From: Escherichia coli
GTDB taxonomy: Bacteria > Pseudomonadota > Gammaproteobacteria > Enterobacterales > Enterobacteriaceae
DNA: 64,000 nucleotides
Assembly (NCBI RefSeq): GCF_001677475.2
Contig: NZ_CP015229.1
Strand: one strand, 5' to 3'
Under the pieces are notes generated by a model that saw only the letters and a program-made list of their open reading frames with translations, was not told the DNA's origin and searched no databases. Each line of letters starts with the position of its first letter. The first letter of the stretch is position 1. Positions 29,662 through 33,587 of the stretch are shown here, in pieces. A program made the translations under genes and the position numbers.

Positions 29662-31638
29662 TTATTCATCTTCAAGATAGGTATATCCGTACAACCCTGC
29701 CTCGAACTCTTCAAGGAACTGTTGTTGCAATTCAGCATCAAGATCGGTTTTCTTCACTTGATCACGGAACTGAGTTAACAGCGTTTTCGGATCGAGCTGT
29801 ACATATTGCAGCATGTCCGCCACGGTATCGCCTTCGTCAGACAGTTCTACTTCTACGCTACCGTCAGGGAAGACGAACACGTCAACCGCTTCGGTATCAC
29901 CGAACAGGTTGTGCATATTGCCGAGGATCTCCTGATATGCGCCGACCATAAAGAAACCGAGCATCGGCGGATTCTCCGGATCGTACTCCGGCATTGGCAT
30001 TGTCGTGGCAATACCGTCACCATCAATATAGTGGTCGATAGCACCGTCAGAGTCACAGGTAATATCCAGCAACACAGCGCGGCGTTCCGGCACTTGATCC
30101 AGCCCTTCCAGCGGCAGAACCGGGAACAACTGGTCGATCCCCCATGCGTCCGGCATCGACTGGAACAGCGAGAAGTTGACGTACATTTTGTCCGCCATAC
30201 GTTCCTGCAGCTCGTCGATAATCGGGCGATGCGCACGGTTTTGCGGATCCAGTTGCTTCTGCACTTCATGGCACATGCTCAGATAGAGTTGTTCTGCCCA
30301 TGCACGTTCTTGCAGATTGTAAGTGCCCGAAGAGTATCCGATATGAATATCGTGCAGATCCATCTGGCTGTCATGCAGCCACTCACGCAGAGAACGGCGA
30401 GTCCCCGGTTCGTGCATTTCCTGCCAGGTTTCCCACATGCTTTGCAGGGCGCGCGGTGCGTCTTCTGCAGGTGCGGTCGGCACCGTGTATTCGTTACGTT
30501 CCACGCCGATGATATTTGACACCAGCACGGTGTGATGCGCAGTCACCGCACGACCCGACTCGGTGATTACCGTCGGATGCGGCAGACCATTTTCTTCACA
30601 CGCATCACCAATCGCCCAGATGATGTTGTTAGCGTATTCATTGAGGCCGTAGTTCACCGAACAGTCGGACTGCGAACGGGTGCCTTCATAATCCACGCCC
30701 AGGCCGCCGCCGACGTCGAAGCACTGAATATTGACGCCCAGCTTGTGCAGTTCCACATAGAAACGCGCGGATTCACGAACGCCTGTCGCGATATCGCGAA
30801 TATTCGCCATCTGCGAACCGAGGTGGAAGTGCAGCAGTTGCAGACTGTCGAGACGCCCGGCTTCACGCAGCGTTTCAACCAGTTGCAGTACCTGAGTCGC
30901 AGCCAGGCCGAACTTCGATTTTTCCCCGCCGGAGGACTGCCATTTACCGGAGCCCTGCGAAGCCAGACGTGCACGCACGCCCAGACGAGGAACGACATTC
31001 AGACGTTCTGCTTCATCCAGCACAATGGCAATTTCTGACATCTTCTCAATGACCAGATAGACCTTGTGGCCCATCTTCTCGCCAATTAATGCCAGGCGGA
31101 TATATTCGCGGTCCTTATAACCGTTGCAAACGATGACGCTACGGGTCATGCCAGCATGTGCCAGCACCGCCATCAACTCCGCTTTGGAACCGGCTTCCAG
31201 GCCCAGCGGTTCGCCCGAATGAATCAGGGACTCAATCACGCGGCGGTGCTGGTTAACTTTGATCGGATAAACGAGGAAGTAATCGCCGTTATAGCCGTAG
31301 GATTCCCGCGCACGTTTGAACGCGGCGTTAATAGAACGCAAACGGTGCTGCAGGATCTGTGGGAAACAGAACAGTGCAGGCAGACGCTGGCCCTGTGCTT
31401 CACGAGTTTTCACTAACTGCGCGAGATCGACGCGAGCTTCCGGGACGTCCGGGTCCGGGCACACGCTAATGTGGCCCAGCTCGTTAACGTCATAGTAGTT
31501 ATTGCCCCACCAGGCAATATTGTAAGTACGCAGCATCTTGCTGGCTTCCTGGGAGCTCATTGCAACCTCCTGCATGGAGCGTAGTACACCGTGTTCGCCC
31601 GCTGACGAAGGCAAACCCATAGACATGTCGTCAGACAT
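29662..31638 (-). CDS. speA: Biosynthetic arginine decarboxylase
   Basis: Protein starts [21 protein letters not shown] (658 aa); 4-codon upstream extension not used. Confidence 0.9.
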
Positions 31639-31646
31639 AGCGAACC

Positions 31647-31778
31647 TCAAATTATTTTATTAAGTGTAAAACAGTTAACGACTATCGCAGCCTGGAACTG
31701 CGATAACAACCCATAAGCACATGGATTTTCCAGCAGTGAATGCTGACGCTCCAACTGCGCAACCGGTTTCTTTTTCAT
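31647..31778 (-). CDS. yqgB: Small protein YqgB (43 aa) immediately upstream of speA
   Basis: Minus-strand translation by eye gives [43 protein letters not shown]; its stop lies 8 bp before the speA start; too short for the ORF track. Confidence 0.7.
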
Positions 31779-31913
31779 AACATTATTAAGCACATAACCG
31801 AACGTAAGTGTGACAGTTCGGCGAAACCACGAGAAAACTCTTGTTTTTACAAGAGCGCCCTTGTTCAGTCCTCAGTAACTGTAACCAGCTCTTGAATCCT
31901 GAGAAGCGCCGAG

Positions 31914-32129
31914 ATGGGTATAACATCGGCAGGTATGCAAAGCAGAGATGCAGAGTGCGGGGAACGAATCTTCACCAGAACGGTGAGACAGGTTAAGCAG
32001 CAGACAACGGTTCATTATTTCGTATCACCTCCACGGCCGCCTGTTAAGACGAACCCACAAGCCAAAACTCTGATTTCAACCCGGCTGGAAGTGGCAACAC
32101 GAAAGAAACGTCGTGTGCTTTTTATTTAA
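31914..32129 (+). CDS. Small ORF at the position of yqgC (71 aa), doubtful
   Basis: 71-aa ORF in the speA-metK intergenic region; length matches the annotated K-12 yqgC as recalled, sequence not verified. Confidence 0.25.
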
Positions 32130-32432
32130 GCCGCGCGCCGCGTTTTATACCCCACAATGGCAGAAAATTGCAAAAGATAAATACGCAGAATGCCGGCATT
32201 GTCAGGAAAAATTTCCAGCCACGTTTTTAACAGAATGAGACACGATTCAAAAAAAAGTGGAAATAGGGTGAAGAATTGACCTAAAATAGCCGTCCAGATG
32301 TTAATCCATCCATACCGATTAACACTCAGACTGCCAGTGTTTTTAACCTGCAGAGTCGTGGTAGGATCCGCTACCACAGAAAATCCACACAACAGTTTGA
32401 GCTAACCAAATTCTCTTTAGGTGATATTAAAT

Positions 32433-33587
32433 ATGGCAAAACACCTTTTTACGTCCGAGTCCGTCTCTGAAGGGCATCCTGACAAAATTGCTGACCAAAT
32501 CTCTGATGCCGTTTTAGACGCGATCCTCGAACAGGACCCGAAAGCACGCGTTGCTTGCGAAACCTACGTAAAAACCGGCATGGTTTTAGTTGGCGGCGAA
32601 ATCACCACCAGCGCCTGGGTAGACATCGAAGAGATCACCCGTAACACCGTTCGCGAAATTGGCTATGTACATTCCGACATGGGCTTTGACGCTAACTCCT
32701 GTGCGGTTCTGAGCGCTATCGGCAAACAGTCTCCTGACATCAACCAGGGCGTTGACCGTGCCGATCCGCTGGAACAGGGCGCGGGTGACCAGGGTCTGAT
32801 GTTTGGCTACGCAACTAATGAAACCGACGTGCTGATGCCAGCACCTATCACCTATGCACACCGTCTGGTACAGCGTCAGGCTGAAGTGCGTAAAAACGGC
32901 ACTCTGCCGTGGCTGCGCCCGGACGCGAAAAGCCAGGTGACTTTCCAGTATGACGACGGCAAAATCGTTGGTATTGATGCTGTCGTGCTTTCCACTCAGC
33001 ACTCTGAAGAGATCGACCAGAAATCGCTGCAAGAAGCGGTAATGGAAGAGATCATCAAGCCGATTCTGCCGGCTGAATGGCTGACTTCTGCCACCAAATT
33101 CTTCATCAACCCGACCGGTCGTTTCGTTATCGGTGGCCCAATGGGTGACTGCGGTCTGACTGGTCGTAAAATCATCGTTGATACCTACGGCGGCATGGCG
33201 CGTCACGGTGGCGGTGCATTCTCTGGTAAAGATCCATCAAAAGTGGACCGCTCCGCAGCCTACGCGGCACGTTATGTAGCGAAAAACATCGTTGCTGCAG
33301 GTCTGGCCGACCGTTGTGAAATTCAGGTTTCCTACGCGATCGGCGTGGCAGAACCGACCTCCATCATGGTCGAAACTTTCGGTACTGAGAAAGTACCTTC
33401 TGAACAGCTGACCCTGCTGGTACGTGAGTTCTTCGACCTGCGCCCATACGGTCTGATTCAGATGCTGGATCTGCTGCACCCGATCTACAAAGAAACCGCA
33501 GCATACGGTCACTTTGGTCGTGAACATTTCCCGTGGGAAAAAACCGACAAAGCGCAGCTGCTGCGCGATGCTGCCGGTCTGAAGTAA
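32433..33587 (+). CDS. metK: S-adenosylmethionine synthetase
   Basis: Protein starts [32 protein letters not shown] (384 aa); 4-codon upstream extension not used. Confidence 0.95.

Follow-up and report, generated by a model that had tools for sequence, protein, structure and literature searches.

The 43-codon gene yqgB upstream of speA in Escherichia coli: an annotated small gene that may act mainly as an upstream open reading frame

The 43-codon open reading frame (ORF) that lies directly upstream of the arginine decarboxylase gene speA, in the 64,000-nucleotide stretch of Escherichia coli DNA analysed here (contig NZ_CP015229.1, hereafter the window), is the known and already annotated E. 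coli gene yqgB. We judge it somewhat probable that yqgB acts chiefly in cis, as a translated upstream ORF (uORF) coupled to speA within the leader of about 500 nt of the yqgG-yqgB-speAB transcript. The ORF itself is an ordinary, annotated small gene; what is new is the account of how yqgB evolves in 79 Enterobacteriaceae and eight species of other families, and these comparative data bear on the database label of YqgB and on its use as a drug target.

Introduction

The leader of speA has been described in some detail. Adams et al. (eLife 2021) cloned the speA 5' UTR, with a 5' end that lies 498 nt before the speA ATG, and deduced that yqgG-yqgB-speAB forms one transcript. The same study reported a Rho-dependent RNA 3' end (Rho score 3.09) lying 57 nt past the speA ATG, at speA +58, counted yqgB-speA among the candidate sites of uORF-dependent regulation, and included yqgB in its list of experimentally validated small ORFs. 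By INRI-seq, the yqgB start codon was detected in vitro and not in vivo; in that study the in vivo ribosome-profiling signal at this codon was undetectable.

The product of yqgB is known under two functional names: RefSeq calls it an "acid stress response protein", a name that goes back to Hobbs et al. (2010) according to a paper citing them, and the corresponding Pfam family is named "virulence promoting factor". In a 2026 study, deletion of yqgB in Salmonella lowered speA and speB mRNA, arginine decarboxylase and spermidine, and sensitised the cells to colistin at low pH, an effect reversed by added polyamines. The authors described drug binding to the YqgB protein, reported H2 antagonists as YqgB inhibitors and treated YqgB as a trans-acting target; complementation of the deletion in trans is not apparent in the main text of that study. 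In a proteome screen for arrest peptides, overexpression of YqgB induced heat-shock proteins of the aggregation type and not the cold-shock-like signature of arrest peptides.

Materials and methods

Loci containing speA were fetched for 80 Enterobacteriaceae species, of which 79 had enough upstream sequence, and for eight species of Erwiniaceae, Yersiniaceae and Pectobacteriaceae. Searches of protein databases with YqgB found few relatives: a word-indexed search returned only Escherichia and Shigella entries, plus one Klebsiella-labelled fragment, and an exhaustive phmmer search returned 14 hits only. Since hits were few and small ORFs are evidently under-called, the DNA upstream of speA was read directly.

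Consensus structures were predicted with RNAalifold on 65 sequences, from -205 to +65 relative to the speA ATG, and dN and dS were estimated by the Nei-Gojobori method (NG86). The 5' end of the speA 5' UTR was located in the window through the primer sequence given in the supplement of Adams et al., and the Rho-dependent 3' end was placed at window position 31581 via the speA ATG lying 57 nt upstream.

Identity and position of yqgB

A 43-aa protein had originally been predicted on the minus strand by eye, with its stop 8 bp before the start of speA. Direct translation of 31778..31647 (minus strand) gives the same residues, encoded by ATG, 42 further codons and TGA, and reveals no frameshift. 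The TGA stop (31649..31647) is followed by GGTTCGCT, which is exactly 8 nt long (31646..31639), and then by the speA ATG (31638..31636). The features of the locus are as follows.

32136, minus strand: 5' end of the speA 5' UTR, from the primer sequence of Adams et al. (supplement)
31872..32015, minus strand: yqgG, a 47-codon upstream ORF in the same leader as yqgB (130 bits on PF23505; annotated)
31791..31793, minus strand: in-frame GTG five codons 5' of the yqgB ATG, a candidate alternative start (start of the listed 48-aa version)
31647..31778, minus strand: yqgB coding sequence, ATG, 43 codons, TGA (K-12 identity, family models and RefSeq annotation)
31645..31649, minus strand: TGAGG, formed by the yqgB stop and the overlapping Shine-Dalgarno sequence of speA, whose GAGG stands 6 nt ahead of the ATG (read from the sequence)
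29662..31638, minus strand: speA, biosynthetic arginine decarboxylase, immediately downstream of yqgB (ORF list and annotation)
31581, minus strand: RNA 3' end mapped by Term-seq to K-12 coordinate 3085854, dependent on Rho and carrying the tag "uORF" (supplementary file 3 of Adams et al. 2021)

Compared with the annotated YqgB of K-12 MG1655 (b2939; CDS in NZ_CP032667.1), the product is 100% identical (43/43 residues), and it passes both family models, with 90.1 bits on NCBIfam NF033844 (cutoff 35) and 113.3 bits on Pfam PF11036 (cutoff 24). Of 5426 complete E. coli genomes, 5425 contain the region with an identity of at least 95%. All 12 E. coli records listed annotate yqgB, in the order yqgD, yqgG, yqgB ("acid stress response protein YqgB"), speA, metK. 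The gene lies between metK and speA, on the same strand as speA and directly 5' of it, an arrangement shared by the 79 of 80 fetched Enterobacteriaceae loci whose upstream sequence was long enough. With 80 ORFs of at least 20 aa in the 5-kb stretch around yqgB, an ORF of such size is unremarkable; it is because of homology and conservation, not of ORF length, that yqgB is considered a gene.

The sequence TGAGGTTCGCTATG, which spans the yqgB stop and the speA Shine-Dalgarno sequence, is invariant in the 65 aligned Enterobacteriaceae sequences. The box GTGTTTTACA at the upstream GTG is likewise conserved in the alignment; in Dickeya and Pectobacterium the yqgB ATG is absent and the ORF begins at this GTG.

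A scan of window positions 31000..33000 on both strands against Rfam 15 (E-value up to 1) returned zero matches and hence assigned the region to no Rfam family. The promoter and terminator scan proposed a sigma-70-like site inside yqgB (TTAACT-16-AATAAT, 31678..31651), which we attribute to chance: it falls in the species-variable tail, and 3 hits were obtained where 1.7 were expected from shuffles. Inspection by eye of the surroundings of a conserved TTTACA box 5' of the yqgB ATG, as a possible promoter, found no plausible -10 element.

The ORF length cutoff

It had further been claimed that yqgB was missing from the ORF track and that the length cutoff of this track hides genuine small genes. 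The gene is indeed unlisted at the default cutoff of 60 aa, and appears as its 48-aa GTG-start version (31647..31793) when the minimum is lowered to 20 aa; at 60 aa both yqgB and the annotated 47-aa yqgG are dropped. In the intergenic stretch only one ORF reaches 60 aa, the old yqgC, a 71-aa plus-strand ORF (31914..32129) antisense to yqgG. It is unannotated in the RefSeq K-12 record, and Weaver et al. observed no ribosome density on it and could not detect its tagged protein. The 60-aa filter here retains one probable non-gene (old yqgC) and loses two real genes (yqgB and yqgG). As for yqgB being a genuine small gene, the description stands as regards translation, which the literature supports, whereas the evolutionary signature detailed below points to a cis-acting uORF in an RNA leader rather than to a conserved protein.

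Maintenance of the open frame and of its stop

Each of the 79 Enterobacteriaceae loci has a yqgB-like ORF 5' of speA. In 59 loci its stop is a UGA at -11..-9 from the speA ATG, with the same 8-nt gap; most of these ORFs start with an ATG at -140 and are 43 codons long, other lengths being found in four Kosakonia-type loci and a few more. The remaining 20 loci have a tail indel or an insertion that brings the ORF into a second frame, which ends at a UGA at +6..+8:

31631..31633, minus strand: alternative yqgB stop UGA within ATGTCTGA (speA codons 2-3), which serves in loci whose yqgB frame is shifted by a tail indel

Whether the tail indel is of -1, -4 or +2 nt, the result is this second frame, and the speA frame is never used. 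One or the other UGA ends the ORF in 79/79 Enterobacteriaceae and in 6/8 species of other Enterobacterales families, even where peptide similarity is lacking. The six species with the overlapping stop belong to Serratia, Rahnella, Mixta, Dickeya, Pectobacterium and Erwinia. In the first three an ATG-start ORF of 47-51 codons ends there; Dickeya and Pectobacterium have a 52-codon GTG-start ORF whose peptide similarity to YqgB is almost nil, and in Erwinia the frame is open and has no ATG. In Yersinia ruckeri and Y. aldovae, where the corresponding stretch runs from about -135 to +8 relative to the speA ATG, CTG stands in place of the yqgB ATG and the frame meets a stop within 8-12 codons, so coupling to speA would not be universal; these two species retain at the DNA level the 3' half (GCTGCGATAGTGGCTGAC...) and the overlapping stop, and their yqgG is intact.

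The yqgB ATG is invariant among the 65 aligned sequences, and no in-frame stop occurs in the yqgB frame of any of them; the other two frames contain 15 and 13 polymorphic stop sites in the same sequences. Insertions of 12 to about 48 codons, located between the last conserved YqgB motif and the stop, have been acquired in several lineages. The frame stays open through a 36-nt insertion in Atlantibacter and a 51-nt insertion in Kosakonia, and it also continues across the ERIC-like elements, about 130 nt in size, that two Enterobacter species have in the yqgB tail. Intestinirhabdus has an insertion of similar size with no ERIC match; in Enterobacter and Intestinirhabdus the whole ORF has 87-91 codons. 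All insertion-bearing ORFs end at either of the two UGA codons next to the speA AUG.

The ERIC-like elements were recognised by matches to the ERIC1R/ERIC2 primers with 3-5 mismatches, at about -116..-72 (locus L055) and -113..-69 (L078) from the speA ATG. The two ORFs that contain them have 90 and 91 codons, and their stop is still in speA codons 2-3.

Read across these alignments, the pattern indicates that the open yqgB frame itself is under selection. The ORF could instead be functionless, open only through conservation of the leader RNA and translated incidentally. Such a view would draw on the nucleotide invariance of most of yqgB, from which its openness is largely inherited, on the undetectable in vivo ribosome-profiling signal at the start codon, and on the loss of the ATG and gain of a stop in Yersinia. 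We hold it to be very improbable. No stop has arisen in the variable columns or in the independent insertions, against 28 polymorphic stop sites in the other frames; the tail indels select only frames whose stop is no more than 8 nt away from the speA AUG; open frames run to the same overlapping stop in distant families with unrelated sequence; and initiation at the ATG was detected in vitro.

Predicted RNA structure of the leader

For the aligned region RNAalifold predicts ten helices, with 99.1% of cells paired. The most relevant of them, and a terminator-like hairpin further upstream, are given below in the direction of transcription.

31831..31856, minus strand: terminator-like hairpin GCUCUUG-loop-CAAGAG followed by UUUUCUC, between yqgG and yqgB (terminator scan)
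31764..31829, minus strand: predicted helix UGGUUUC (31829..31823) / GAAACCG (yqgB codons 3-5, 31770..31764) (RNAalifold helices 2 and 3)
31730..31746, minus strand: small predicted hairpin UCAGC / GCUGG in yqgB codons 12-16 (RNAalifold helix 5), kept in Mixta
31673..31711, minus strand: predicted hairpin within yqgB (GGUUGUUAUCGC / GCGAUAG..UAACU) (RNAalifold helices 6 and 7)
31663..31668, minus strand: UACACU in yqgB codons 38-39, 5' arm of a predicted domain-closing helix, inside which the hairpin of the speA start region lies (RNAalifold helix 9)
31593..31645, minus strand: predicted hairpin around the speA start region (GUUCGCUAUGUCUGACGA / UCGUCAGCGGGCGAAC), about -21 kcal/mol (RNAalifold helix 10)
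31585..31590, minus strand: GGUGUA in speA codons 17-18, 3' arm of the predicted domain-closing helix (RNAalifold helix 9)

The predicted start-region hairpin would bury the speA AUG and part of the Shine-Dalgarno sequence, for which the unpaired probability in the predicted E. coli fold is at most 0.1, and the yqgB stop sits at its foot. Of its 16 pairs, 12 never vary, and compensatory changes number none in the 65 sequences, so far as this predicted structure goes. In the domain-closing helix all six pairs are invariant, together with the synonymous positions of the speA arm, and an ACACTT-like box is retained beside the Shine-Dalgarno sequence in most insertion-bearing species. The published 3' end (31581) lies 4 nt after this helix.

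In the predicted hairpin within yqgB, the arms correspond to GLLS and AIVVN of the peptide and the loop to the variable residues 27-30. These arms are nucleotide-invariant, third positions included, the only changes being GC to GU or UA to UG. Further 5', the UGGUUUC/GAAACCG helix, whose UGGUUUC arm is invariant, encloses the yqgB start codon and the hairpin CCGAAC/GUUCGG (31821..31798, helix 3). The latter shows compensatory changes, with CG replaced by UA in 4 sequences and AU by GC in 9. Compensatory changes are confined to helix 3 and to the upstream terminator-like stem, which varies between species from CTCTTG/CAAGAG to CTCCTG/CAGGAG. Because most pairs are invariant, covariation is uninformative on the structure except at helix 3 and at the upstream stem. 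The predicted structures would instead draw their support from synonymous sites that are invariant in yqgB as well as in speA, and from the preservation of pairing by the few changes observed; invariance of the pairs could equally mean binding sites for a protein or an sRNA.

Within speA, the first 30 codons have a third-position pairwise identity of 0.84, against 0.64 further in. The conserved synonymous sites of codons 1-26 (31561..31638, minus strand) coincide with the predicted start-region hairpin and precede Met27, the published internal start that gives a shorter SpeA isoform.

Constraint on the YqgB peptide

Pairwise identity of yqgB at codon positions 1, 2 and 3 is 0.80, 0.75 and 0.76, with no third-position excess of change; the corresponding values for speA codons 61-200 are 0.98 at positions 1 and 2 and 0.64 at position 3. 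Among codons with a single difference, the synonymous share is 35% in the yqgB frame; the two alternative frames give 19% and 27%, and speA gives 97.6%. The Nei-Gojobori dN/dS is 0.77 for yqgB (dN 0.24, dS 0.31) and 0.014 for speA (dN 0.012, dS 0.86); compared with speA, yqgB thus changes its amino acids about 20 times faster and its synonymous sites at about one third of the rate. This low dS points to constraint on the synonymous sites of yqgB. Purifying selection at the amino-acid level, in the form of a dN/dS well below 1 with a third-position excess, is not what yqgB displays.

Three motifs of YqgB (MxKKPVA, YGLLS and AIVVNCFTL) are conserved in Enterobacteriaceae, and this conservation extends to the nucleotides, third positions included. 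The residues between the motifs take 7-12 different amino acids, and the last four residues 5-7 per position. Variation at codons 7, 13, 33, 34 and 39 is synonymous only, and within Escherichia dN is lower than dS in most pairs; some constraint at the peptide level is possible. Taken as a whole, the comparison suggests that the peptide is almost unconstrained and matters mainly as an ORF translated up to the start of speA.

These rates bear on the more usual conception of YqgB, that of a small trans-acting protein which helps cells to withstand acid stress, for instance through more polyamine synthesis or a changed envelope, and whose adjacency to speA is a matter of operon organisation. The RefSeq and Pfam names speak for it, as do the colistin sensitivity of the Salmonella deletion at low pH, the reported inhibition by H2 antagonists, the conservation of the three motifs and the few motif sites with synonymous-only variation. 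We nevertheless consider it rather unlikely. A dN/dS of 0.77 with no third-position excess is not expected under this conception; the motifs are conserved as nucleotides and coincide with predicted helix arms, and the residues between them vary widely; the peptide is unrecognisable in Pectobacteriaceae though the ORF persists; and the insertions of 12 to about 48 codons are tolerated. Published experiments add to this: the deletion lowers speA and speB mRNA and is rescued by polyamines, with no complementation apparent in the main text, and overexpression of YqgB produces an aggregation-type heat-shock response.

The peptide could also act while still on the ribosome, as a metabolite-sensing arrest peptide whose AIVVNCFTL nascent chain stalls the ribosome on polyamine, arginine or agmatine and thereby sets the access of Rho and the expression of speA. 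Polyamine genes of E. coli use such logic (speFL-speF, mdtU-mdtJI), and Adams et al. list yqgB-speA beside them; the conserved motif is near the C-terminus, and codons 33, 34 and 39 vary only synonymously. This role nonetheless appears improbable to us, since the last four residues are variable and the motif keeps no fixed distance to the C-terminus, insertions of 12-48 codons separating it from the stop in several lineages. The motif is moreover invariant at the nucleotide level, which is not required of a peptide sensor, and is absent in Dickeya and Pectobacterium, and the proteome screen grouped YqgB overexpression with aggregation-type heat-shock inducers.

Proposed mechanism and related systems

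The coupling of yqgB to speA could operate as follows. Ribosomes would load at the yqgB AUG, which stands in an A/U-rich stretch and has no Shine-Dalgarno sequence, and would read the 43 codons, melting on their way the helix whose 5' arm is in codons 38-39. Termination would take place where the hairpin predicted to bury the speA AUG has its foot, on the UGA that overlaps the Shine-Dalgarno sequence of speA. The terminating ribosome may open this hairpin, so that speA would be translated by re-initiation or facilitated initiation, and the unbroken ribosome cover would keep Rho off the early speA RNA. If yqgB were not translated, the speA start would stay closed and Rho would end the transcript, giving the 3' end 58 nt into speA. 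The selected trait would accordingly be the loading of ribosomes at the yqgB AUG and their run to within 8 nt of the speA AUG, the sequence of the YqgB peptide being largely a by-product of constraints at the RNA level.

This coupling fits both the fall of speA mRNA in the yqgB deletion and the Rho data. The deletion also removes RNA elements, and its effect on speA mRNA therefore does not separate translation from structure.

Two leaders of polyamine genes can be set beside that of speA. The mdtU-mdtJI system, in which a uORF and Rho termination control a spermidine exporter operon, resembles it in having a small translated ORF in a long 5' UTR before a polyamine gene and a Rho-dependent 3' end just inside the downstream gene, reported in the same study (Adams et al.). 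The two differ in that the mdtU stop is 106 nt upstream of mdtJ and the MdtU C-terminus is conserved, whereas the yqgB stop abuts the speA start and its tail is variable. In speFL-speF, too, a leader ORF precedes a decarboxylase of the putrescine pathway, with Rho and mRNA structure involved. The ornithine-sensing SpeFL, however, stalls immediately before its own stop; YqgB has no sequence hallmarks of such stalling and, unlike this arrest peptide, did not behave as one in the published overexpression screen.

In terms of geometry, the closest counterparts may lie elsewhere. The trpE-trpD pair and the coat and replicase genes of phage MS2 are classical cases of stop/start translational coupling with a structured downstream start. 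They share with yqgB-speA a stop that lies within a few nucleotides of the next start or overlaps it, and a Shine-Dalgarno sequence and AUG buried in a hairpin, here a predicted one. They differ from it in that the yqgB cistron has apparently no conserved protein product and that its leader contains a second uORF and a terminator-like hairpin. By analogy, yqgB would work most like classical stop/start coupling placed in the leader of a polyamine gene. If so, control by uORFs and Rho, as in speF and mdtJI, would extend to speA as a further polyamine gene.

The upstream part of the leader

Upstream of yqgB, the terminator-like hairpin lies about 17 nt after the stop of yqgG, whose translation was demonstrated by Weaver et al. 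Judging from their arrangement, yqgG and this hairpin look like a classical leader-peptide attenuator placed 5' of yqgB.

A wider reading can then be put forward, which we regard as a substantial possibility without giving it our preference: YqgB may be no functional protein, and yqgG, yqgB and the intervening sequence may together form an undescribed structured leader of about 500 nt with two uORFs, conserved across Enterobacterales and absent from Rfam. Such a leader would set the expression of speA, and of speB, by means of attenuation, translational coupling and termination by Rho, perhaps with polyamines or arginine as the signal. The acid and colistin sensitivities of yqgB deletions would then be cis effects on the expression of arginine decarboxylase, and drug screening on the YqgB peptide would aim at the wrong molecule. 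With respect to the YqgB of K-12, we are dealing with the same gene, the same 43 residues and the same 8-nt position, and only the label "acid stress response protein" is questioned.

The coding signature of yqgG is weak, with identities of 0.80, 0.80 and 0.75 at the three codon positions and a synonymous fraction of 0.43. Its C-terminal ...GA(S/T)QDSRAG is kept in Serratia, Yersinia, Dickeya and Pectobacterium, and these residues are exactly the last ones of the ORF there. A second RNA 3' end of Adams et al. (K-12 coordinate 3086295) maps to window position 32022 on the minus strand, in the Shine-Dalgarno region of yqgG and about 114 nt after the 5' end of the leader.

Finally, the consensus leader contains two copies of the box TGTTTTACA, one shortly before the yqgB ATG and the other within yqgB codons 36-38 (alignment columns 59-67 and 179-195, about -158 and -36 from the speA ATG). 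The second copy is at about 31672..31664 of the window, and in E. coli the first has diverged to GTGCTTAAT.
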